A stretch of DNA of 64,000 bases from a virus, in IMG/VR virus record IMGVR_UViG_3300032285_004073, positions 64,001 to 128,000 of that record. One strand, given 5' to 3'. The translations under genes and the position numbers were made by a program. The notes under the pieces are model-generated. The model did not search any database. It was not told where the DNA came from and worked only from the letters and a program-made list of their open reading frames with translations. This document shows, one piece after another, positions 1 to 54,840 of the stretch; position 1 is the stretch's first letter; each line of letters opens with the position of its first letter.

Positions 1-335
1 GATTGTCTATTTTTTTCAGATTGTATTCTCAATTCAAAAGGTTCAAAATCTGTAACAGGACTATATCTTTGACTAAATTCTTGAAAAGAAAAACTTCTGT
101 GACGAAGAATTTGAGCTGCTATAGCTCTGGATGTTTTAATTTCAACTGTAACACTAACCATTTCATATGGAGACCAGTGTTTATGTTCAATTAAATATTT
201 TAATAATTTAGGTGCTGTCTGTGTATTTAATTGATTAGAAGGGTTGGATACCCTTGCACAATAAACCACAAAATCTTCTGGTGATAAAACACCTTCTATT
301 ATAGGTTCTGTAATACCAACTATTCTTACTTGCAT
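1..335 (-). CDS. thyX: Flavin-dependent thymidylate synthase ThyX (runs off the left edge; not in the ORF track)
   Basis: Manual translation from ATG at 335: MQVRIVGITEP...YCARVSNP...HKHWSPYEMV...SRAIAAQILRHRSFSFQEFSQRY, containing the ThyX signature RHRx7S. Confidence 0.95.
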   Translation of the reverse strand, partial: MQVRIVGITEPIIEGVLSPEDFVVYCARVSNPSNQLNTQTAPKLLKYLIEHKHWSPYEMVSVTVEIKTSRAIAAQILRHRSFSFQEFSQRYSPVTDFEPFELRIQSEKNRQ

Positions 336-1195
336 AAAAGGATCTCTTTAAAAAGATTAATATTCTCTTCTACATATTCTAATTGAGAATCTGATATTTC
401 ATTTTCAAAAATATCTACCATCTTCTCTGTAATTTTATGTTCTAAATTAACATTATTTTCATAACTCTTAAGATTATATCCCATTAATACTGGATGTGAG
501 GTATCAATTGTTTCTATAAAAGAATAAAGTTCTCCTTTATAATTTATAAATTCAGTCGGCAAACCACATCCAAGTAAATGATGTGGTTTGGTATAATCTA
601 TAATACCATCTTCAATAAATTGTTGTAAAAGAATAGGTCTAAAAACTGAATAAGCAGTTGGTTTCCACACTTCTTTTATTCTTTTTTCATTATTAAGAGG
701 ACTAGAAGTAATAGCTGTGAAAACATCTCTGTCCATTTTTTCTAAAGCTTGCTGCCAAAAATAATCATAACCAAAGCTAATAGCTATTTTATCTGCATGT
801 TCTCTCATGAATAAATAGGAATCCTTTAATTCCTGGTAATTTTTTCCTTGGATAACTCCTATAGCCTTTCCGCGGAAAGTTCCTCTATCAAATTTTACTA
901 GGAACTCTTCAAAACTCTTAATATTTGCTTCATAATTCTGAAAAACATCTGGTATTATATACTCATCCGGCTCTAATTCATAGAGCCAATTAATAAATTT
1001 ATCATGGTTATAAGCTTCACCAAGTTCATAAAGACTATTATCTAAAATAATTTTGCGTCCTAACTTTTTTGATTTAAAGAAAAAATCTCTATATTCTTTA
1101 TTTTCTTCCAATAAATGAACTAATGCATAGTCATAATCGGTTAATCCTCTGACTCTTTCCATTATTTTTAATGGTGCTTCGTGTGCTACTAACAT
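326..1195 (-). CDS. TGT/DpdA-like TIM-barrel protein, candidate 7-deazaguanine DNA-insertion enzyme
   Basis: Motifs IILDNSLYELG, GVIQG, HHLLGCG and IDTSHP parallel the TGT-fold DSG, QG, HxLG and D(S/T)S motifs. The TGT CxCxxC Zn site is absent. ATG at 1195 is preferred over TTG at 1204, which abuts the -10 box. Confidence 0.55.
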   Translation of the reverse strand: MLVAHEAPLKIMERVRGLTDYDYALVHLLEENKEYRDFFFKSKKLGRKIILDNSLYELGEAYNHDKFINWLYELEPDEYIIPDVFQNYEANIKSFEEFLVKFDRGTFRGKAIGVIQGKNYQELKDSYLFMREHADKIAISFGYDYFWQQALEKMDRDVFTAITSSPLNNEKRIKEVWKPTAYSVFRPILLQQFIEDGIIDYTKPHHLLGCGLPTEFINYKGELYSFIETIDTSHPVLMGYNLKSYENNVNLEHKITEKMVDIFENEISDSQLEYVEENINLFKEILLCK

Positions 1196-1206
1196 ATATT
1201 TCAATT

Positions 1207-1234
1207 ATTATACTCTATTAAGAAAATAAATCAA
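1207..1234 (-). promoter_or_regulatory. Sigma70-like promoter TTGATT-N16-TATAAT
   Basis: Read directly on the minus strand, 11 nt upstream of ATG 1195. Confidence 0.7.
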
Positions 1235-3791
1235 ACAAATCTGTTTGAACTTCTGTGCCTAAAGCTGGTATATCCCATCCGATACACTCATAAACTCTTT
1301 GAATAGGAGGTGCAACCATCTTATCGAACATCATTTGGTGATTAATTTTGATGTGCTCGTTGAGTTCATCTGGGTATAAATCTATAAATGCCATTACTTT
1401 ATAATTAAATGGATTTTTAGATGCATAAAAATATTTCATTTTCATACCGCTTGTAATAGATTCATGCAAATGGTCAATCTTATAATGCTTTAATAAGTGA
1501 TTATAATGAATAGCTGCCTTGGCATGAATAGGAGTTCCTTTACCAATCTTGCCAAAATCATCCATTTTAGCTTCTTGTTTTTCTAAATCTGAAATTTTAC
1601 TTCTAATAGAAAGCTCTTCAGCTTTCATTTCTTTAAATTTGTTATAAGATTCTCTAAAAATTTCATTAGACTTCTTTTTATCCTCTGAAAGCATTGCTAA
1701 TTCAATAACATTTTTAATTAATTTTTTAACAGTATCTGATATAGATGAACGAGCTACTTCAACACCTACATATTTAAAAGGGTCTTTCGGTATATAACCT
1801 TCTTTATCTAAAATATGGAGTATATACCTTTTCTTTTCCATGAAGAGACCCACGTCACAAATGGTTTCTTGTTTAAATACAAATCTAGGATCTGAAGATT
1901 TTAATTGTTCTCTAGCCCAAACTAGAATTTCTGTATTGAGATAGGTATCAATTTCTTTTGTTATTTCCCTTGCTTCATCTGTCAATTTACCATCTTCAAC
2001 AAGTTTTATATTTAAATGTGTAAGAATAGGTTGTATGGAGAAATATGCTGAATCAGTGTCACCATAAAGATATATTTTTTCTTTATCAACTTTGCAACCT
2101 TTCTTTAAGGCATATTCATAAACGATCTCAGCTGCTTGTTTAACTACAGACTGACCCGTTAACGTAATACTAGCTGAATGATCTATATCAAATAATGGTG
2201 AATATTTTTGAGCAAATACTCCATAGATGGAATTCAATACAAGTTTATAAACATTTTGTTGTGTATCTAAATTAAGAATTTCTTGTTCTATTTTATTTTT
2301 TTCATCTTTATCTTTAATAGAACGTATCAATTTCTCTCTTTTAATCATTTCATTCTTAGCCTCGACACGCTCTTTATATAAGCGATCAATCAGATTAGGA
2401 ATGACTCCTTTAAACTTTTGTGTATATAATACGTTATATTTTGATATAGAAAGATTTTCTTTTTGTACAAGTCTATTAAATTTCTCTTCTGAAAGAGTTA
2501 CGGTTTTTTCATTGGCTAATTTAATAGTATATTGTTTATCTTCTATAGTGGTTATTTTGCCTATTTTTGTCTCTGGAGATATATTAAGAGTAATGATAGT
2601 GTTGGGATATAGACTATTTGCATCATAACTTACAACAGATTTACTCAAACCGCGTTCCGGTTCATGCACATATCCTCCAACATATTCATCTCGTTCTCCT
2701 TCATTTTTAAAAGTTGGTATTTTATATCCCTGTATAAAGGCTTGATGTGCTACAGCTCCGGTAATCATGGATACTTTGCCCATGGCCTGTTCAAAAGGAA
2801 TAAAACCTTTATAAGAAAGAGTACGAATCAATTTAATAAATTTTAATTTTTCATCAAGCTTAACTAAAATTCTTACGTCCTGAATATTATAATCAACAAA
2901 CAACTCCCAATTATCAATTGATAATTGGGCAAGATTGGATCCACCTGTATCAATCTTTCCTTCTTTTAATTCATATTCACCTACATAATTAAGAGAATAA
3001 GATTCTCTATCACCTCTTGAAAAGGTTTTATAAACTTCCATGTAATCAATGTTACTCACACCTCGGATGTACCAACGATTGATCATTTTACCAAATTTAT
3101 TCATGGCCACATTCTCTCTATAATAGAGAGAATTTACCGGTGAAAGTCTAGCTGCATCTTCTTCTCCAAATAGATTATGTAATCTATTCATGATATAAGG
3201 AATATCAAATCCTTCTCCATTCCAAGTACAAAGCATATCTGGAGGATCTTTCTCCCAAAATTCTAAAAATGCTTGAAGCATTTCTGTTTCTCTTGAATGG
3301 CAAAAATAGGTTATATTTTTTTCTTTAGGTTTATAAGGTTTCTGCCCCCAAGAATAATAATGATTGTTTATAGAATCATAAAGAGTAATAAGATTAATAG
3401 GATCCTTAGCTAATTCTGGAACCGGAAATTCATTAGGAGAATAGGTTTCTATATCCAAAAAGTAAACCTTTAACGGATGCTGACCAAAGTCTAATTTGTG
3501 AATTTCATCTTTATAAGTTGAAAGAAGAAAATCCTGTTCGCAACTAAGATTATTAAATAATCTTTTAATAGGTGTCTCATTGACAAATTTACTCCTATCA
3601 AACTGATTTTTAAATGTAACTTTCTTTAACGGTGTGTTAAAGATCGAAGTAGCATCATGAGCTGATGAAGACTCAATATAAAGATGAGGTTCGTAATCAG
3701 CCACAAGCTTAATGCGATTACCTTTTTCATCCCAAGTCCAAAGATGAATAACTCCTTGTCTTCCATCATAAAAAATATTTCTCCATGCCAT
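1218..3791 (-). CDS. gp43: Family B DNA polymerase (T4 gp43-like)
   Basis: Exonuclease motifs FLDIETY, WNGEGFDIPY, YNIQDV; polymerase motifs YDANSLYP, KLVLNSIYG, YGDTDS. Confidence 0.97.
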   Translation of the reverse strand: MAWRNIFYDGRQGVIHLWTWDEKGNRIKLVADYEPHLYIESSSAHDATSIFNTPLKKVTFKNQFDRSKFVNETPIKRLFNNLSCEQDFLLSTYKDEIHKLDFGQHPLKVYFLDIETYSPNEFPVPELAKDPINLITLYDSINNHYYSWGQKPYKPKEKNITYFCHSRETEMLQAFLEFWEKDPPDMLCTWNGEGFDIPYIMNRLHNLFGEEDAARLSPVNSLYYRENVAMNKFGKMINRWYIRGVSNIDYMEVYKTFSRGDRESYSLNYVGEYELKEGKIDTGGSNLAQLSIDNWELFVDYNIQDVRILVKLDEKLKFIKLIRTLSYKGFIPFEQAMGKVSMITGAVAHQAFIQGYKIPTFKNEGERDEYVGGYVHEPERGLSKSVVSYDANSLYPNTIITLNISPETKIGKITTIEDKQYTIKLANEKTVTLSEEKFNRLVQKENLSISKYNVLYTQKFKGVIPNLIDRLYKERVEAKNEMIKREKLIRSIKDKDEKNKIEQEILNLDTQQNVYKLVLNSIYGVFAQKYSPLFDIDHSASITLTGQSVVKQAAEIVYEYALKKGCKVDKEKIYLYGDTDSAYFSIQPILTHLNIKLVEDGKLTDEAREITKEIDTYLNTEILVWAREQLKSSDPRFVFKQETICDVGLFMEKKRYILHILDKEGYIPKDPFKYVGVEVARSSISDTVKKLIKNVIELAMLSEDKKKSNEIFRESYNKFKEMKAEELSIRSKISDLEKQEAKMDDFGKIGKGTPIHAKAAIHYNHLLKHYKIDHLHESITSGMKMKYFYASKNPFNYKVMAFIDLYPDELNEHIKINHQMMFDKMVAPPIQRVYECIGWDIPALGTEVQTDLFDLFS

Positions 3792-4381: not shown

Positions 4382-5701
4382 TTACACCTTTTGATCCAAG
4401 TTATTTGCTATAAGAGTTGGGCTCTTTTCATTTCTTTCTTTAGATCCAAAATCTGTAAAATACAAAGCCTCATATTCATCTAAATGATCTTCTAACCAAA
4501 GACCTTCTGTAAATTTACGAGACTTATCTGAGAATTTCATATATCGATCAAAATCTGATGTGAGATATTCTAATTGCTGAATAAGATCTGATCCGTTTTT
4601 GAATGAAAAATCTGCACCCTCATATGTGCAAATATCTTGATAAGCGCCTGGCATACCAAAAGCTCCGGCTTCAATCATTTTAATATTGCTCTTAGATTTA
4701 TTAAAAACATTATCTTGGAGAGGTGCAAATGAAACATTACAGTCTGTGTCATACAATGCTTGAGGTAAATCCGGAAGAGGAGACCATTCTAGGTATTCCA
4801 TTTCACCATTATCAATATAAGGTTTAACAGCAAGAGGGAAACATCCCTTCCAAACAAATTTAAATTTCTTGCGAGCTTTAATAATATCTTGTACTACATG
4901 CTCAAAATCATCCTTCATTCCAGTTTTATTGACTACATCTATATGTGTGCCAGAACCTGCATAAAGAACGCGAGGACGCTTTTTATTTTTTTCAAAAAGC
5001 TCTATAATTCGATTTCTATTGTAGTAGCGATCAAGCCAAGATTTAGGCGCATAATTTGGAATAACTGTGATATTTTTATTGCCTGTCTTATCTATATAAT
5101 AATCTTTCATATATTGACAAGTGACGGATATTTCATCCATCATACTCATAATATCTAGAATACTAGAGATAATATCTTGACTTACAAAAGCTTCTTTACA
5201 ACGATTATAATCTGGAATATCATCTTTAAAAACTATATCGTCTACTTCATAAATCATGCGAAAACCCATATCCTTTTTAACTCTCGTAAGTTCTCTAATA
5301 AACTCTCTCTGAACTGGAGTTGCTTGTCTTTGCATTCTAATAGCCTTAATGCCTTGATAAAATCTAAGATCCAATACCATGCATGTAAGACCTGAAATAC
5401 AGGCTTTCTGATATTGATTTAAATTAAGCTCCGGCCAAATCATTCTCCAAAACCCGCATCCACCATAATCAGCATAATAATTTAGGGCTCTAGGTAAATT
5501 ACTTTCTGGCATCTCAACTGGTGGCGGAGATGGCATACTAATGGGATTGGCTGCTACATAAGAAAAATTGGGTGTTCCGTGAGGTAATGCAGGAGCATTG
5601 GGTATACCTGCACTAAATGCTTTGTATTCATAAACTATACGATTACTAGTATCAATACTATTTGAAGCAGGAGAAGCATTATTCTTAATTTTTAAAGCCA
5701 T
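4382..5701 (-). CDS. GT-B-type (GT4-like) glycosyltransferase with Pro-rich N-terminus
   Basis: ADYGGCGFWRM, IYEVDD, VTCQYM, VIPN, YAGSGTH, APLQDNVFNKSKSNIKMIEAG: the pattern typical of phage GT-B glycosyltransferases. Confidence 0.75.
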   Translation of the reverse strand: MALKIKNNASPASNSIDTSNRIVYEYKAFSAGIPNAPALPHGTPNFSYVAANPISMPSPPPVEMPESNLPRALNYYADYGGCGFWRMIWPELNLNQYQKACISGLTCMVLDLRFYQGIKAIRMQRQATPVQREFIRELTRVKKDMGFRMIYEVDDIVFKDDIPDYNRCKEAFVSQDIISSILDIMSMMDEISVTCQYMKDYYIDKTGNKNITVIPNYAPKSWLDRYYNRNRIIELFEKNKKRPRVLYAGSGTHIDVVNKTGMKDDFEHVVQDIIKARKKFKFVWKGCFPLAVKPYIDNGEMEYLEWSPLPDLPQALYDTDCNVSFAPLQDNVFNKSKSNIKMIEAGAFGMPGAYQDICTYEGADFSFKNGSDLIQQLEYLTSDFDRYMKFSDKSRKFTEGLWLEDHLDEYEALYFTDFGSKERNEKSPTLIANNLDQKV

Positions 5702-5736: not shown

Positions 5737-6495
5737 CTAGACTTTAAGGGCTTTATCCCAAACAAGAAGGTGTAATCTAGGACTAAAATTTACATGCATT
5801 GCTTTAGCATACTCTGCAACAACTGGAGCCTTTTCTATATGCTCTTCTCTAGAACCACAGCAAGGCATAAACCAAATACGGTCTCTAATTGCATTAATAT
5901 GATGCTTATCGTCAACATACTTTTCCCAAATTTCATTAATATCTTCTGATTTGTTAATAACAAATTTAAACCCTGATCCATTTCTTGCATGCCATTTAAG
6001 AACCTCTGGCTTGTAGGTTTTATCTTCTGGATCCCCGTTTGATCGGAGTTTAGGTGACGTTGTAAAAGTGGCATTAAAAGCATCTTTCCAAACTGGATCT
6101 GGCATTAAAGTAGCATTGGTTTCAAAATCAATACGCGGAACAATTTTATATTTCTCTATAAATGCTTGAATGAATTTAATTAATTGCTTCTGTTGAATAA
6201 GCGGTTCACCGCCTGTAAGCTTAAGAATAGCATTATGTGCTAAATGATTGATATAACCATTATCTTCCATAAGTTGAAAGATTTCAGCAAATGTCATTTT
6301 ATTCTTAACTGTCCAAGAAATAAATGAATCACATCCATTAGGAGAATCTTCTGAAGCAAATCCAATACACGTCAAATTACACATTGACATGCGCATAAAC
6401 ACTGAAGGTTGTCCTACAAATTCACCTTCACCTTCAATAGTATAAAAAACTTTATCATCCGACAAAAATAATGTCTCTGTATTAATATCAATCAT
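5737..6495 (-). CDS. queE: 7-carboxy-7-deazaguanine synthase QueE (radical SAM)
   Basis: FYTIEGEGEFVGQPSVFMRMSMCNLTC...CDS, LTGGEPL, FETNAT, SPKL, FSPRLHLLVW. Confidence 0.88.
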   Translation of the reverse strand: MIDINTETLFLSDDKVFYTIEGEGEFVGQPSVFMRMSMCNLTCIGFASEDSPNGCDSFISWTVKNKMTFAEIFQLMEDNGYINHLAHNAILKLTGGEPLIQQKQLIKFIQAFIEKYKIVPRIDFETNATLMPDPVWKDAFNATFTTSPKLRSNGDPEDKTYKPEVLKWHARNGSGFKFVINKSEDINEIWEKYVDDKHHINAIRDRIWFMPCCGSREEHIEKAPVVAEYAKAMHVNFSPRLHLLVWDKALKV

Positions 6496-39227: not shown

Positions 39228-39503
39228 ATGACCGAAAAGGTTTATAATCTTAATAATTTAACTCAAAACCAAATTAAATTAATTCTTGAAGCTTTGCTTT
39301 ATGCTGGTTCTGTCGACATTAACAGTGCCTGGTATAAAGAAGAAATAGAAAATATGGTTGATTTGGCTATTGATATTAGAAAAATTTCTTCTAATATTCC
39401 TTTAGAAAGTATATACGCCTTTGAAGAAGAATATTTTGATTCAACTACTAAAAAAATTGTTGAATTCTTTCCAGAGATTTTATATAATAAACCAAATTTA
39501 TGA
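39228..39503 (+). CDS. Hypothetical protein
   Basis: 91-aa ORF, ATGA-coupled to the next gene. Confidence 0.65.
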   Translation: MTEKVYNLNNLTQNQIKLILEALLYAGSVDINSAWYKEEIENMVDLAIDIRKISSNIPLESIYAFEEEYFDSTTKKIVEFFPEILYNKPNL

Positions 39504-40132
39504 AAATAGCTGTTTCAGGTGCTCAAAATACTGGTAAGTCAACTTATATTAAAGACTTTTTAAAAAAATGGACCATGTATGAAACTCCTAAAGAATCCTA
39601 CAGAGATCTTCTTAAGGAAAAAAATTTACCTCATAGTACAGAAGGCAATGAAGAATCTCAAAGAATTATATTAGATTTTCTTATTGATCAGTGTCAAAAA
39701 TATTCTAAAGAAGATAATGTAATTTTTGATAGATGTGTATTAGATAATTTAGCATATTCATCTTGGTTAAATCTTAATGGAAAGGTTTCTGATAAATTTC
39801 TAGATGAATCTAGAATTATTGTAAGAGAAACATTAAGCATGTTTGATATTGTTTTCTTTGTACCTTTAACTAAAGTAGCCCCTATTGATATAGAAGAAGA
39901 TGGATTAAGAAACACAGACCCTGTGTTTAGAGAAGAAATTGATAATATCTTTAAAGTATTTGAACAATCTTACCATCAAGGTGATGGGAGAGTGTTTCCT
40001 AAAAATGACAGTCCTCCTATTATAGAAATTTATGGTAATCCAGAACAAAGAATAATGCTTACAAGTCTTTATATCAATGAAGACGGTAAACAATACGGTG
40101 AAGAAGAAACTTTAATTAAGCCCGCCTTCTAG
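39500..40132 (+). CDS. P-loop nucleotide kinase-like protein (AAA_28/dNMP kinase-like)
   Basis: VSGAQNTGKST, IFDRCVLDNLAY, DGLRNTD. Confidence 0.78.
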   Translation: MKIAVSGAQNTGKSTYIKDFLKKWTMYETPKESYRDLLKEKNLPHSTEGNEESQRIILDFLIDQCQKYSKEDNVIFDRCVLDNLAYSSWLNLNGKVSDKFLDESRIIVRETLSMFDIVFFVPLTKVAPIDIEEDGLRNTDPVFREEIDNIFKVFEQSYHQGDGRVFPKNDSPPIIEIYGNPEQRIMLTSLYINEDGKQYGEEETLIKPAF

Positions 40133-42632: not shown

Positions 42633-43349
42633 ATGAGTGTCAAAAAACCAAAAGCAATTGTAATTTATAGTGGTGGTTTAGATTCTACGTGTCTTTTATA
42701 TAAAATTCACAAAGATAGAGAAGTTATAGCATTAATCTTTAATTATGGACAAAGGCATTCCATTGAAATAGACAATGCAATTAATAACTGTAAGAAATTA
42801 GAAATACCATATAAGGTATTAGACATTTCTTTCTTTAAAGATATAGCATCTTCCTCTGCTTTATTGGATTATAATAAAGAAATTCCCAATATCAGGGATA
42901 TAGCAGGTCATGCCCAACCTCCGACCTATGTCCCTAATAGGAACATGATGTTTTTATCAATTGCCACAGCAGCTGCAGAGTCAGCAGGGGCAGATAAAGT
43001 TTATTATGGAGCAGCTGAGGTAGACACCCATAGTGGTCATTGGGATTGTTCTTTAGATTTTTTAAAATATATTAATGAAACTATTTCTCTTAATAGAGAA
43101 CATCAAATCAAAATAGAAGCACCTTATATAACATATTCTAAGGCAGATATTATTAAAGATGGTATTAGTAATAATGTAGATTTTAATAACACCCATACCT
43201 GTTATAAGGGTGAAGAAATTGCATGTGGCACTTGTACAGCATGTTCTTCTCGTATTCAAGGTTTTCTTGAGGCTGGATATATTGATCCTAAACAATATGT
43301 AATATCAGATAAAATACCATGGAAAGATCACAACTGCCAAATCGTATAA
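42633..43349 (+). CDS. queC: 7-cyano-7-deazaguanine synthase QueC
   Basis: YSGGLDST PP-loop, YGQRH, YVPNRNMMF, Zn site HTCY...CGTCTAC..R. Confidence 0.95.
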   Translation: MSVKKPKAIVIYSGGLDSTCLLYKIHKDREVIALIFNYGQRHSIEIDNAINNCKKLEIPYKVLDISFFKDIASSSALLDYNKEIPNIRDIAGHAQPPTYVPNRNMMFLSIATAAAESAGADKVYYGAAEVDTHSGHWDCSLDFLKYINETISLNREHQIKIEAPYITYSKADIIKDGISNNVDFNNTHTCYKGEEIACGTCTACSSRIQGFLEAGYIDPKQYVISDKIPWKDHNCQIV

Positions 43350-44008
43350 AAACACAGCATATTGTTTGTGCTACACCTCTTTCTCTAGAAGATTTTTATG
43401 AGAAAAGCCAATTGGGTTTATTTATAGACAAATATAATTTCCAAAAACAAAGCACAATAGTAGCTAACAACAAAGAAGGATTGCCTAAAGTTTACAATTC
43501 TTTTATAACTGAAGAAAACAGAGACAAAAATATTATATTTGTTCATGATGATGTTCTTATAGAAGATCTTTTCTTTGCCGAGAAATTAGAAATTGCTTTT
43601 GAGAAATATGATATTATAGGATTAGCTGGTTCTAAGGTTTGTGATTTAGATAGCATTAACCCGGCTTGGCATCAAATGTGTGAAAAGAAAGACATGGTCG
43701 GAGAAGTAGCACATGCTCATAATAAAAAAGTATGGACTTCTGTATTTGGACCTACAGATTCTAGAGCCCTTATTCTTGATGGATTGTTTATAGGTGTCAA
43801 TGTTGCTCGCTTATTAAAAACACAAACATTTTTTGATGAGGATTTTGATTTTCACCATTATGATATTTCTTTTTGTTTAAAAGCCAATGCTAATAAATTA
43901 AAAATGGGTGTAGCTCCGATCAGGGTTATTCATTTTGGATTAGGTGATAGTATGAATACAAAAGAATGGAGAGAGAGTGCAGCTCGTTTTAAATTAAAGT
44001 ATAATTGA
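43319..44008 (+). CDS. GT2-like glycosyltransferase (Glyco_tranf_2_5-like)
   Basis: IFVHDDV, IIGLAG, LDGLFIGVN, FDEDFDFHHYDISFC. Confidence 0.8.
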   Translation: MERSQLPNRIKTQHIVCATPLSLEDFYEKSQLGLFIDKYNFQKQSTIVANNKEGLPKVYNSFITEENRDKNIIFVHDDVLIEDLFFAEKLEIAFEKYDIIGLAGSKVCDLDSINPAWHQMCEKKDMVGEVAHAHNKKVWTSVFGPTDSRALILDGLFIGVNVARLLKTQTFFDEDFDFHHYDISFCLKANANKLKMGVAPIRVIHFGLGDSMNTKEWRESAARFKLKYN

Positions 44009-44011
44009 TTT

Positions 44012-44665
44012 ATGTGCGGAATATACGGAAATATAAATCATGCTGAATTTTATAGACTTTACAAATTAAATAAATCTCGTGGCAGTTATAGTACTGGGTT
44101 TCTTTTTATTGATAATAAAGAATATGAAGTGAAGAAAACCAATGAAGATGTTTCTTATTATCCTATAGCTTTAAAAAAATATTATTTAGGACATAACAGA
44201 GCCCCTACTACAGATGAAAATGGCAAAGGATTGACTGGTTGTCACCCTTTTATCTATGGTAAAGCTATAGCAGCTCATAATGGTATTATTTCCAATACAG
44301 ATATTTTAGAAAATGAATATAAAATTAAATTTGATGTAGATAGTCAATGGATACCTTTTCTTTATGATTATTTTAAAAGGAATAATAATCAATCAGAAAA
44401 TGCATTCCGTCTCGCTTTATTGGAATTAGAAGGAACATATGGAATTTGGCTTTATGATATAGATGAAGAAATTGTATTTGTATCAAGAAGTGATAATACA
44501 GTTTACTGGGATGATGAAAAAATATCCTTTACATCCATTAGAGATGATATGCATAAAAATTTAATGCCGCAGGGCGCTATTTACAAAAAAGAAAATAATG
44601 AACCGTTTAAAGATATAAACGAAAACAATAGGTTGAATATTAAACAGAAGTATTTTATTATATAA
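44012..44665 (+). CDS. Stand-alone class II (Ntn) glutamine amidotransferase
   Basis: N-terminal MCGI, GHNRAPT, HPF, HNGII, DSQ; no SIS or synthetase domain. Confidence 0.88.
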   Translation: MCGIYGNINHAEFYRLYKLNKSRGSYSTGFLFIDNKEYEVKKTNEDVSYYPIALKKYYLGHNRAPTTDENGKGLTGCHPFIYGKAIAAHNGIISNTDILENEYKIKFDVDSQWIPFLYDYFKRNNNQSENAFRLALLELEGTYGIWLYDIDEEIVFVSRSDNTVYWDDEKISFTSIRDDMHKNLMPQGAIYKKENNEPFKDINENNRLNIKQKYFII

Positions 44666-44668
44666 GTT

Positions 44669-45238
44669 ATGAGTTATTTTAAACAAGATTACAATGGTGA
44701 TTTAATCCACAAGAGATTTGGATACGAGCATTTTAAAAAAGATTATAATCCCTTAGGAGTTATTATTGCCTTTAGAGGCAATATGGATGTTACAACCAAT
44801 CTCATTGATTTAGAAGATAAAATTAATAATGATTTTATTTATTCAGATGATGCTTTAAACTTTTGCTGGGAAATCCCTAATATTTGTCCTATCGGTGCAG
44901 TTTTCTTTCAGAGACTTTTTGCTCGTTATATCGGAGATGAATTAGCTAGCGGTCGTTATGGAAAATTAAATGTTAAGGTAGATGGAGATGATATAATGAT
45001 CATTAGACCAGGCGACGCAAAGTACGGCAAAGCTAGTGTTAGTATTACTATGGTTACTAATAATGCAGCAGTAGGACATCTTGGTTTAAATATTAAAGCA
45101 GGACCTAAGGCTCCTACCTTTGCATTTTCACTCTTATTAGATGATGCAGATACTGCTTGGCTAACCAATAGAGTTAAAGAAATATTTTATGAGACTATTA
45201 AAGATTGTTTCACCGCCACTACAAAGGTTTGTGTTTAA
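44669..45238 (+). CDS. DUF366-like protein (BPL/LplA/class II aaRS-like fold)
   Basis: Y.G..I, IIAFRG.MDV, IDLED, FQRL, GDDI, K.SVSI, HLGLNI match the recalled DUF366 pattern. Confidence 0.7.
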   Translation: MSYFKQDYNGDLIHKRFGYEHFKKDYNPLGVIIAFRGNMDVTTNLIDLEDKINNDFIYSDDALNFCWEIPNICPIGAVFFQRLFARYIGDELASGRYGKLNVKVDGDDIMIIRPGDAKYGKASVSITMVTNNAAVGHLGLNIKAGPKAPTFAFSLLLDDADTAWLTNRVKEIFYETIKDCFTATTKVCV

Positions 45239-51766: not shown

Positions 51767-52645
51767 ATGGATCTCTCATCTATTCTCAAAAATATCGACA
51801 GTAATGTTTTAAATGAAGAAACAGCCACAGCTATTGCCGAGGCGTTTAAAAGTGCAGTTGATGAAAAAGTCAATAATAGAGTAACTCTTGAACTTGAAAG
51901 TGCTCTTAGCAAACAAGATGAAGAGCATGCCACAAAATTAGAAAATCTTTTAGAAGCCATTGACACTGATCATTCAGCTAAATTAGAAACAGTTGTTAAT
52001 GCTATTAATGAAAATCATACAGCCAAGTTAGAAAAGCTTGTTGAATATTACCGCAAGGCTCTTAATGAGAAAGCAGAAAACTTCAGCAACAAGGTTGTAG
52101 AAGAGCTTAGTAACTTTATCGATCTTTATATAGATAAAGCCATTCCTCAAACCCAATTAGAAGAAGCTGTTGCTAATACAACAGCTCGTCAACAGCTCGA
52201 GCAAATCAAAAACATTTTAGCCTTTGATCCATCTCACTTAAATGAAGATGTTAAAAAGATTATCACCCAAGGTAAAAACAAAGTTGATGAATTACAAAAT
52301 CAATTAAATGAATCTTATAGGGAAAATTTAACCCTTAAAGAACATCTTATCCATACACAATCAGCCCTTCTCTTAGAGGAGAAAACTAAGGGCATGCGTA
52401 CAGCTAAAAAGAATTTTATTACAAAAATATTGAGCGACAAGTCACCTGAGTATATTTCAGAGAACTTAAATTATGTCGTTGAGATGTTCGAGAGAGAAGA
52501 GAAGGAAACTTCAGCTTCCCTTGTAGAAGAAGCAAAAGAAGCTTCCTTATCCAAGGGTGTTAAAGTACCTGCCGCTGTAATTTCTGAGAAAAAAGAAATT
52601 GACAGTCCAGTCTCCGGATATCTTACAGCTTTAAAGTCGGTCTAA
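51767..52645 (+). CDS. gp22: Prohead scaffold (T4 gp22-like)
   Basis: Acidic coiled-coil protein (LNEE, FKSAVDEKV, Y.NYVVE-like) between protease and capsid genes. Confidence 0.85.
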   Translation: MDLSSILKNIDSNVLNEETATAIAEAFKSAVDEKVNNRVTLELESALSKQDEEHATKLENLLEAIDTDHSAKLETVVNAINENHTAKLEKLVEYYRKALNEKAENFSNKVVEELSNFIDLYIDKAIPQTQLEEAVANTTARQQLEQIKNILAFDPSHLNEDVKKIITQGKNKVDELQNQLNESYRENLTLKEHLIHTQSALLLEEKTKGMRTAKKNFITKILSDKSPEYISENLNYVVEMFEREEKETSASLVEEAKEASLSKGVKVPAAVISEKKEIDSPVSGYLTALKSV

Positions 52646-52706
52646 GGCCGCTTTTATACGTTGGAGAAGAGCAATTAAGCACTTCCCGAATTCTATTCAA
52701 ATAGGA
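52638..52706 (+). promoter_or_regulatory. Structured 5' leader of the major capsid gene with an SD (AGGAG)
   Basis: Hairpins CGGTC-TAA-GGCCG, GGAGAAGAGC-AATTAA-GCACTTCCC and TTCTAT-TCAA-ATAGGA. Confidence 0.55.
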
Positions 52707-52715
52707 GAACTATAT

Positions 52716-54194
52716 ATGAACAATGTCAAACCAGCCCCTGGTTTCATCGATCGCTCTCGCGCCACTCAACTCTTAGAGAAGTGGGCCCCTGTTCTTGATT
52801 ATTCAAGTGACAAGGTTTCCCCAATCCAAGATGAGCATGCCCGTCTTTCAACAGCAATGTTGATGGAAAACCAAGAGCGTTGGTGCTTAGAGGAAGGTAG
52901 TGCTAATTCTTATGGTGGCAGTGCCTTTGGCTCTGTCCCAGCAGGAGCTAACATCTACAATCCAGCTAATACCCAATATGCTTCTAGTGATAATTATGCG
53001 CAGAATGATGCTCGCTTACCAAAGGTATTAATCCCAATGGTTCGCCGTACATTCCCAGAACTTATCACTAATGAGATCGTCGGTGTACAACCAATGAGTG
53101 GCCCAGTCGGACTTGCGTTCGCATTACGTTATCGCTATGAGGCAGATAGTTTAGGCTCAACGGGAGTTGATGGCTGGACCAGTGGTGTTTCACAAACCAG
53201 CAACACAGGCATCAGTCGTACAGGTGCAAACCCAACGACAGATGGCTCAGAACTTGGCTATAACTATCTTGATACTCGCTTTACTGGTACTTCAGCTGCC
53301 GCCCTTACAGGTAACACGGATTTTTACTTCCCTGATTCCGATAAAGGTGTCGCTGCATTACTCAGTCAATTCGAGTTATCTGGAAACATTCCACAGGTCA
53401 CTGTAGAGTTCAGTAAGACAGCAGTTGAAGCCGGCACACGCCGTCTCGCAGCTCGCTGGTCTGTTGAGCTCGAGCAGGATCTTAAGAACATGAACGGTCT
53501 CGATATCGACTCTGAATTAACAAATGCCATGAGCTATGAAATTCAAGCCGAAATCGATCGTGAAATGGTCATCAGAATGATCCAGACCTGTCTCAATGCC
53601 GGTTCTACAAATGGATATAGCTTCTGGTACGCTGCTTCAGCCGACGCTCGTTGGCTCGGAGAGCGTAATCGTGACTTCTACAGCAAGGTAATCGTACAAG
53701 CCAATCGTATTGCTATCCGCAATCGTCGTGGTAGCGCTAATTTCATTATCGCTACACCTAAGGTTTGTGCTATCCTTGAGATGTTACCCGAGTTCCAGTG
53801 GATGCCTGTAAATGGCAACATCAACACCCAACCAACTGGCATTGCCAAGGTTGGCACACTTGGTGGCCGTTTCAACGTCTACCGTGATACTCGTACAGAT
53901 GCTCAATTCCTCGCAGGACAACGCAGTGCAGCTCAAGCTATTGACTATGCCCTCTTAGGCTACAAAGGCACAGAGTACTACGATACAGGTATCGTATACT
54001 GCCCATATATCCCTGTCATGATTCAACGTACAATCGGGCCTAATGACTTCTCACCTCGCGTGGGACTCATGACCCGTTACGGTGTCGTAGATTATATCTT
54101 CGGTGCTAGCTTGTACTATCACGTAATCATCGTTAGCGGATTGGGTACCTCTTTTGCCGGCGGAGCCAATGGCCAGAGTACAATTTACATCTAA
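52716..54194 (+). CDS. gp23: Major capsid protein (T4 gp23-like)
   Basis: LLEKWAPVL, LIPMVRRTFP, GVQPMSGPVGLAFALR, AGTRRLAARWSVELEQDL, YCPYIP, TRYG. Confidence 0.98.
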   Translation: MNNVKPAPGFIDRSRATQLLEKWAPVLDYSSDKVSPIQDEHARLSTAMLMENQERWCLEEGSANSYGGSAFGSVPAGANIYNPANTQYASSDNYAQNDARLPKVLIPMVRRTFPELITNEIVGVQPMSGPVGLAFALRYRYEADSLGSTGVDGWTSGVSQTSNTGISRTGANPTTDGSELGYNYLDTRFTGTSAAALTGNTDFYFPDSDKGVAALLSQFELSGNIPQVTVEFSKTAVEAGTRRLAARWSVELEQDLKNMNGLDIDSELTNAMSYEIQAEIDREMVIRMIQTCLNAGSTNGYSFWYAASADARWLGERNRDFYSKVIVQANRIAIRNRRGSANFIIATPKVCAILEMLPEFQWMPVNGNINTQPTGIAKVGTLGGRFNVYRDTRTDAQFLAGQRSAAQAIDYALLGYKGTEYYDTGIVYCPYIPVMIQRTIGPNDFSPRVGLMTRYGVVDYIFGASLYYHVIIVSGLGTSFAGGANGQSTIYI

Positions 54195-54294: not shown

Positions 54295-54840
54295 ATGAAA
54301 TATGCTTTAACAGGATCTCATGGAGTAGGTAAGACTACTATTATTAATGAGCTATATGATTATCTAGAAGAATCTAAGATTAAACCTATTATTAATAGCA
54401 GTAATGCTCGTAAGATTGCTTTGTCTGGAAGAACAATTAATGATACAGGAGATGATATTGTTCAAATGATTGTTGAATGTAGTCATGTTAGTAAATTCTG
54501 TGAGGATAATTGGTTTGCAGATCGAAGTGTTTTAGATGGTTATGCATATACGAAATATCTTCATGCTACTGGAAAGGTATCAGATGAAGTAATGAATGTA
54601 GTAGGTAAGCTTATGTCTACATTTGTTAAGCTTTATGATAATATCTTTTATATTCCAGTGGAGTTTGATATGATTAAAGATGGTGTTAGAAAAGAAGATT
54701 CTAAATTTCAAAAGAATATTGATAATATTATTTTTAATACGATGTATGATAATAATGTTCATTTTAATACTATTAGAGGTTCTGTGACAGAAAGAGTGGA
54801 AAAGATTAAGAGTATTATTCACCCTCACTTTGACTTCTAA
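54295..54840 (+). CDS. Second P-loop nucleotide kinase-like protein (AAA_28-like)
   Basis: LTGSHGVGKTT, ADRSVLDGYAY, DGVRKED. Confidence 0.78.
   Translation: MKYALTGSHGVGKTTIINELYDYLEESKIKPIINSSNARKIALSGRTINDTGDDIVQMIVECSHVSKFCEDNWFADRSVLDGYAYTKYLHATGKVSDEVMNVVGKLMSTFVKLYDNIFYIPVEFDMIKDGVRKEDSKFQKNIDNIIFNTMYDNNVHFNTIRGSVTERVEKIKSIIHPHFDF

Follow-up and report, generated by a model that had tools for sequence, protein, structure and literature searches.

The DNA analysed in this study (the window) comprises 64,000 nucleotides, bases 64001-128000 of the 176,807-bp IMG/VR virus record IMGVR_UViG_3300032285_004073, which has a CheckV completeness of 82%; the GC content of the window is about 30%. 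Near the start of the window, on the minus strand, a gene for a predicted guanine transglycosylase lies between the genes of a family B DNA polymerase (polB) and of ThyX. The encoded protein is, very probably, a member of the known DpdA3 family with a role in the 7-deazaguanine pathway. Positions are those of the window unless marked as genome positions. The locus contains the following genes:

3-335, minus strand: thyX, 5' part (Pfam Thy1, 6.2e-23); the whole gene spans genome positions 63670-64335
326-1195, minus strand: DpdA3-family transglycosylase gene (tblastn; PHROG 19058, 1.7e-44; AlphaFold (AF2) model)
1218-3791, minus strand: T4 gp43-type family B DNA polymerase, polB (Pfam DNA_pol_B and exo domains; PHROG 262, 1.6e-187)

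The target open reading frame (ORF) extends over 326-1204 on the minus strand and would give 292 amino acids (aa) if started at TTG 1204, 3 aa more than from the ATG. The start at ATG 1195, shared by the homologues and the database copy P0001, gives 289 aa; this is also the form that the first-pass annotation of the sequence had delimited (326-1195), and residue numbers of the target protein refer to it. The polB stop at 1218 is followed by a 22-nt spacer and the target ATG at 1195, and the target stop (TAA 328-326) falls within the start region of thyX (ATG 335), giving a 10-nt overlap, so that the previously proposed order of polymerase, target gene and thyX is borne out. No terminator-like site was found between polB, the DpdA3 gene and thyX on the minus strand, and a sigma-70-like match at 1234-1207 was no better than expected from shuffled sequences. 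Judged by this layout, co-transcription of polB, the DpdA3 gene and thyX is plausible.

Family signature, predicted fold and clade

Searches of the target protein against general collections gave little. In Pfam only a sub-threshold match to Gemin6 was obtained and none to the tRNA-guanine transglycosylase (TGT) family PF01702 at E 0.1; PF01702 was also without a match at E 1 anywhere in the whole genome record. No NCBIfam model matched the target protein, and nothing was found in the PDB by phmmer or profile search. When 50,697 phage records were searched with tblastn, the target matched the 'DNA guanine transglycosylase DpdA' of Flavobacterium phage immuto_2-6A (37.5% identity, 96% query coverage, E 4e-47) and, in the CP220 group, gp056 of Campylobacter phage CP220, annotated as a hypothetical protein (37% identity, 91% coverage, E 4e-40). 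Both proteins (YP_010114477 and YP_009169190, respectively), together with CGPG_00065 of Cellulophaga phage phiST, are those to which the name DpdA3 was given (Cui, Hutinet and colleagues; Nucleic Acids Res 2023, PMC10516641). DpdA1, DpdA2 and DpdA4 were not among the matches listed in the tblastn and profile searches with the target, and tblastn with E. coli TGT against the phages recovered only bacterial-type TGTs, with no DpdA1 or DpdA2.

The motifs of the target protein are LDNS (D52 to S54), IQG (Q116, G117), HHLLG (205-209) and IDTS (D231, T232). D52, S54, Q116, H206-G209, D231 and T232 are invariant across 44 homologues with 39-79% identity to the query. The set LDNS, QG, HLLG and DTS, all four members of which the first-pass annotation had named and all of which are present and invariant or nearly so in these homologues, is thus a conserved signature of the family, and a chance match is excluded.

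The AF2 model of the target, built on the 44 sequences, has a predicted local distance difference test (pLDDT) score of 92.4 and forms an eight-stranded TIM barrel, with D52 and D231 at strand ends. Foldseek against the PDB returned 191 matches at E <= 0.001, the best 50 of these 191 being all bacterial TGTs (top 4e-8). VIA-align, which is independent of Foldseek, placed DpdA (7ui4) first with Z 16.8, followed by archaeal ArcTGT (15.6), TGT (15.3) and QTRT2 (14.9), all above generic TIM barrels (Z 12-14, top 14.1). The BFVD model of phiST M4SLA5 also matched the target model (TM 0.80/0.88); we take M4SLA5, without having checked its identity, to be probably the founding DpdA3 member CGPG_00065. 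At the profile level, hhalign of the target family with six bacterial TGTs gave a modest probability of 66% (E 5.6e-5), pairing GVIQG with GIIQG and KPHHLLGCGLP with KPRYLMGVGKP; only in relaxed hhalign did IDTSHP pair with FDCVMP, which holds the nucleophile D264 of E. coli TGT. The zinc ligands of E. coli TGT (C302, C304, C307 and H333) are invariant in the six bacterial TGTs and have no counterpart in the target, which contains only two Cys (C210 and C288) and ends 58 residues past D231; no conserved Cys/His cluster follows D231 among the homologues. As modelled, the gene encodes a minimal TGT-fold TIM barrel without the zinc subdomain. A TGT-like fold lacking the zinc site had been predicted beforehand, with a fold other than a TGT-like TIM barrel named as the finding that would speak against it; the model, Foldseek and VIA-align all indicate that the fold is TGT-like.

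The family is large: clustering at 90% identity gave at least 1510 clusters, and 3736 representatives were counted at 50% identity (E <= 0.001). In the maximum-likelihood (ML) tree, the target and eight other dereplicated metagenomic sequences formed a clade of their own (support 90/71), sister to the group holding immuto, CP220 and marine sequences. The gene order of the target clade, gp46-QueE-glycosyltransferase-PolB-DpdA3-ThyX-129aa-UvsX-QueD-gp41, is kept down to about 47% DpdA3 identity, and 7 loci of the clade retain DpdA3 followed by ThyX. In a census of the genes around DpdA3 in 81 viral loci, PolB lay directly upstream of DpdA3 in 27. The target therefore newly adds a distinct clade of uncultured T4-like phages to DpdA3 and is not a new kind of system. 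Of the two assignments offered by the first-pass annotation, 'DpdA3-like' agrees with the identity to the immuto and CP220 proteins (37%), the match to the phiST model and the tree position, and 'new subfamily' was too strong, the protein falling inside DpdA3 as a separate clade.

Several variants were encountered within the family. Two members consist of DpdA3 fused to a DpdN-like formyltransferase, and the extra parts of other long forms are a NUMOD3 homing-endonuclease motif (P0082) and DUF3310; no kinase fusion was found in the long members P0186 and P0134. In two relatives (L008 and L011), the PolB encoded upstream of DpdA3 comes in separate parts of about 132 aa and 780 aa; those of L008 are separated by a 269-aa ORF, which may be an insertion of the homing-endonuclease or intein type. 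The replisome block of the target phage also holds a gene for a 298-aa DHH/DHHA1 phosphoesterase (genome 59008-59904, minus strand) between gp41 and gp32; it is kept in 5 clade loci and could supply mononucleotides.

The 7-deazaguanine pathway and the DpdA3-linked kinase

Genes predicted to act in 7-deazaguanine synthesis, with two neighbours of queC, are found at the following places:

genome 56270-57178: FolE2
genome 61516-62079, minus strand: QueD, 1.9-2.5 kb before the window start
5737-6495, minus strand: QueE-like radical SAM enzyme (CDG synthase; PHROG 2076, 8.6e-42)
42633-43349, plus strand: QueC (preQ0 synthase), canonical (Pfam QueC, 1e-58)
44012-44665, plus strand: stand-alone class II glutamine amidotransferase near QueC (Pfam GATase_6; GlmS/PurF N-terminal models)
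44669-45238, plus strand: DUF366 protein (Pfam DUF366, 1.7e-21)

The queE gene is the one that had been noticed earlier about 4.5 kb upstream on the same strand as the target; five NCBIfam QueE models match its product, all below their cut-offs. QueC scores 179 bits with TIGR00364 against a cut-off of 150 bits and carries a four-Cys cluster (C190, C198, C201 and C204). The QueD homologue carries CQYVHGY, which departs from both the CxxxHGH signature of QueD and the LxxxHRHxF signature of DpdL. QueF, type I FolE and a PF01702 TGT were not found in the 82%-complete genome record. Since QueC is present and QueF was not found, the base of the target phage is expected, from its gene content, to be preQ0 or something made from preQ0. 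The use of FolE2 instead of type I FolE, QueC without QueF and the added DUF366 gene further suggest that the base is probably neither fdPreQ1, nor dADG by way of QueC*, nor dDG. The que genes of this phage are scattered through the replisome block, and QueC without QueF points to a preQ0-type or still unknown base.

The link between DpdA3 and the que genes extends beyond the target. At least one of QueD, QueC and QueF was present in 20/20 long viral records with a DpdA3 homologue, and each of the three records with a completeness of 90% or more had both QueD and QueC. Homologues occurring independently of que genes, which the first-pass annotation had regarded as evidence against its proposal, were thus not seen among these records.

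On the plus strand, four genes are tightly packed at 42633-45238 and encode QueC, a GT2-like glycosyltransferase, the class II amidotransferase and the DUF366 protein. The DUF366 protein has counterparts of 59-61% identity in G002 and G003, relatives without QueF, and none in G008 and G013, which have QueF; it may stand in for QueF as the preQ0-tailoring step of the QueF-less clade. A literature search on DUF366 matched only papers on DUF3669. An amidotransferase homologue adjoins QueC in 4/5 related records, QueF-bearing ones included, and for this reason a split Gat-QueC making archaeosine was set aside; the amidotransferase may only feed ammonia to QueC. A further glycosyltransferase gene (439 aa, PHROG 7162; 4382-5701, minus strand) lies between queE and polB, a position that is shared by 17 related loci and prompts one to ask if sugars are attached to the deazaguanine or to the DNA as well.

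The commonest neighbour of DpdA3 in the census was an AAA_28 P-loop protein of about 184 aa, whose gene is the next one downstream, in the same orientation, in 62 of the 81 loci (median gap 14 bp). These 62 loci cover 20 of the 32 DpdA3 clusters at 70% identity and collapse to one DpdA3 cluster at 50% identity. A bimodular QueF then follows in 59 loci, and 34 loci hold a DpdN-like gene. The same kinase cluster includes CP220 gp057 and immuto gp203, each annotated as 'thymidylate kinase'; gp057 adjoins DpdA3 in CP220, and gp203 is the second gene downstream of DpdA3 in immuto, between DpdN and QueF. Against the PDB, the kinase profile matched deoxynucleoside kinase (dNK; 2.9e-6), thymidylate kinase (TMK; 2.6e-5) and the ribosylnicotinamide kinase (RNK) of NadR (3.8e-5), and the kinase model (pLDDT 90.8) resembled NadR RNK (Z 18.1 and 16.9), deoxyguanosine kinase (15.2) and TMK (15.0). 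The fold is that of a nucleoside/nucleotide kinase and not ParB-like as in DpdB; on the modelled structure, the DpdA3-linked P-loop protein is of the small-molecule kinase type.

This kinase also shows a phyletic link to DpdA3. Among the 50,697 phage records, the marine kinase at E 1e-5 matched Campylobacter phage genomes only, the same phages that carry DpdA3, and the kinase family is present in 18/21 DpdA3 records and in 3/3 complete records. In the very distant Bacillus phage BSTP12 and Weizmannia phage Youna2, three consecutive genes come after a que operon, in the order P-loop kinase-like gene (hhalign 80%, 1.3e-5), DpdA3-like gene (98.6%, 7.6e-16) and PolA. The gene beside the kinase of Streptomyces phage Yaboi was considered as a hidden DpdA3 and rejected, being a real FkbM methyltransferase. 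In the relatives G009 and G010, the reading frame of the DpdA3-linked kinase gene runs across one TGA, and in G014 across one TAA, which could be caused by sequencing error, pseudogenization or recoding. The word 'kinase' does not occur in the paper that named DpdA3 (PMC10516641). Two paralogues of this kinase are encoded in the window, neither of which adjoins DpdA3:

54295-54840, plus strand: P-loop nucleoside/nucleotide-kinase-like protein (AAA_28), 36% identical to the neighbour-kinase cluster
39500-40132, plus strand: second AAA_28 kinase paralogue (Pfam AAA_28, 9.8e-13), 2.5 kb upstream of QueC

The former is the closest homologue in the genome of the DpdA3-linked kinase, and its best matches in cultured phages are CP220 gp057 and immuto gp203. 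The latter is also found about 3 kb from QueC in G002 and G003. Just upstream of the former, the region 52001-54000 has a GC content of 0.43 (about 0.30 elsewhere), coinciding with a 492-aa ORF at 52716-54194. The window contains no tRNA genes.

The substrate of the transglycosylase

The explanation preferred here is the published model, in which the enzyme swaps guanine in phage DNA for a 7-deazaguanine; we commit to it only narrowly and, as a whole explanation, would put it at about even chances. It is preferred because it is the published view, because we know of no TGT-family transglycosylase acting on a non-polynucleotide substrate, Cap10 apart, and because DpdA is the top structural match. 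A PDB entry of Cap10, bound to a protein partner, was among the structural matches. According to the preferred model, GTP would be converted to a preQ0-type base by FolE2, QueD, QueE and QueC, all encoded by the phage, and without QueF the pathway should stop short of preQ1. A double displacement of the TGT/DpdA type would be most likely, in which D231 attacks C1' of a 2'-deoxyguanosine unit and guanine leaves, D52 serves as general acid and base, and the 7-deazaguanine attacks the covalent intermediate and enters in place of guanine. The deoxyguanosine unit would belong to phage DNA close to the replisome, and G would be replaced in bulk, which would shield the genome from restriction. For the target, what D52 and D231 do in catalysis, which base is inserted, that DNA is the substrate and how far G is replaced are all inferred; the precedent for the mechanism is DpdA, in which Asp95 is the acid/base and Asp256 the nucleophile (PMC10164549). 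In the three DpdA3 phages that were tested (CP220, phiST and immuto), all G in the DNA was replaced (PMC10516641).

A number of points weigh against exchange in DNA. Attempts at heterologous DNA modification with DpdA3 in E. coli failed, and replacement of G is 100% in DpdA3 phages vs 0.1-30% for DpdA1, DpdA2 and DpdA4 (PMC10516641). The most conserved neighbour of DpdA3 is the nucleoside/nucleotide-kinase-like gene. The zinc subdomain is absent from the target and the DpdA3 family is acidic (median pI 5.2), neither of which favours a DNA substrate. As to identity, the margin of the TGT family over generic TIM barrels is modest (Z 16.8 vs 14.1), D52 was not aligned with the TGT Asp in profile alignments (hhalign in global mode; N-terminal halves alone), and its equivalence to TGT Asp89 is drawn solely from strand order and motif likeness.

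Some of these observations would fit better with a pre-replicative route, in which DpdA3 exchanges the base on free deoxyguanosine (dG) or its monophosphate (dGMP), the linked kinase phosphorylates the product towards the deoxynucleoside triphosphate (dNTP) and the phage polymerase incorporates it. We consider this route possible, at appreciably below even chances. It would explain complete replacement, as in genomes with hydroxymethylcytosine (hmC), hydroxymethyluracil (hmU) or Z, and 100% replacement has been seen with DpdA3 only (PMC10516641). The missing zinc subdomain, the acidic protein and the failed heterologous modification of DNA (PMC10516641) are all in keeping with it, as is the observation of the ADG nucleoside in the cytoplasm of CP220-infected cells (PMC10516641). 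The kinase itself points the same way: it adjoins DpdA3 in 62/81 viral loci, is also linked to it in CP220, immuto and the distant Bacillus and Weizmannia phages, resembles the small-molecule RNK, dNK and TMK in both PDB profile and fold, and shows a phyletic link to DpdA3 (matches at E 1e-5 limited to DpdA3-carrying Campylobacter phages; 18/21 DpdA3 records). In addition, an HD phosphohydrolase adjoins DpdA3 in CP220, and a dUTPase/MazG is near it in phiST. However, the kinase is not adjacent to DpdA3 in the target phage's own clade, and of the enzymes that could remove dGTP, no MazG, HD or dUTPase_2 protein was found in the target phage's 82%-complete record. The adjacency in the large marine clade, which forms one cluster at 50% identity, may partly be inherited synteny, and Streptomyces phages that lack DpdA3 also have related AAA_28 kinases. 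To our knowledge, there is also no TGT-fold enzyme that uses a mononucleotide, and the literature search found no paper showing a nucleotide-level route. The P-loop protein could moreover be a helper ATPase, as DpdB is for DpdA (PMC10164549).

From the gene context, the first-pass annotation had suggested action on DNA or at the nucleotide level rather than on tRNA. The nucleotide part of this idea is strengthened by the family-wide kinase link, but the ThyX and PolB neighbours on which it was based are conserved in this clade only. If the nucleotide route were true, DpdA3 enzymes would possibly be the first TGT-fold enzymes acting on a free deoxyguanosine nucleoside or nucleotide, and not DNA insertases, an outcome to which we likewise give somewhat more than one chance in three; a 7-deazaguanine genome would then be written by the polymerase from the dNTP pool, and compact enzymatic access to 7-substituted 7-deaza-dNTPs would be gained. 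The conserved pair of DpdA3 and kinase, present in at least three unrelated phage lineages, makes the question of DNA or nucleotide directly testable.

Two readings that leave the phage DNA out of the reaction were also considered. As the fold is TGT-like and the genome encodes 10 tRNAs, Tyr-GUA included, the target could modify host or phage tRNA (e.g., the phage tRNA-Tyr GUA) in the manner of TGT and leave DNA untouched. This is hardly credible: the zinc subdomain, which in TGT participates in tRNA binding, is absent, PF01702 has no match, and the gene is part of the replisome block and distant from the tRNA cluster (genome 15-21 kb); cultured DpdA3 phages, moreover, have fully modified DNA (PMC10516641). 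The other reading, that the protein is a TIM-barrel enzyme of a different activity (e.g., a glycosidase or nucleotide-sugar enzyme linked to the glycosyltransferases nearby) with an indirect link to the que genes, is very unlikely, though slightly less so. Generic TIM barrels do reach Z 12-14, searches of Pfam, NCBIfam and PDB sequences were without a match, and a glycosyltransferase is conserved between QueE and PolB. On the other hand, the TGT family was ranked first by two independent aligners (Foldseek and VIA-align), each of the invariant motifs can be set against a strand-end motif of TGT, que genes accompany DpdA3 in 20/20 records, and DpdA3 occurs in fusions to the DpdN-like formyltransferase.

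Comparison with known systems

The target is closest to the DpdA3 proteins of phiST, CP220 and immuto, which are likewise of about 260-290 aa, consist of a single TIM barrel without the zinc subdomain, and are encoded with FolE, QueD and QueE genes near a DNA polymerase. Unlike in the other DpdA3 phages, the synteny in the target clade is PolB-DpdA3-ThyX, with no adjacent kinase, QueF or DpdN, and the target phage uses FolE2 for type I FolE and QueC without QueF, plus a DUF366 gene. DpdA3 is the only DpdA type tied to complete guanine replacement; with phage DpdA1 and DpdA2 and archaeal-virus DpdA4 it shares the same role in 7-deazaguanine modification of DNA.

Tgt (PF01702) and ArcTGT have the same barrel, and their motifs can be set beside those of the target (LDNS/TDSGG, PDV/FDE, IQG/IQGG, HLLGCG/YLMGVG and IDTS/FDCV). 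The target differs from them in having no PF01702 match, no CxCxxC...H zinc site and no C-terminal tRNA-binding parts, and in the association of its gene with DNA replication genes. The bacterial DpdA of Salmonella Montevideo (7UI4), which inserts preQ0 into DNA as part of the Dpd restriction-modification system, also has a TGT-type barrel (root-mean-square deviation 3.1 over 230 residues), and by analogy the same two-Asp double-displacement chemistry would be expected in the target. The bacterial enzyme, however, has 413 aa, in contrast to the 289 aa of the target, which lacks the zinc site and is 12% identical to it; bacterial DpdA requires the ParB-like ATPase DpdB and modifies <1% of G, at specific sites.

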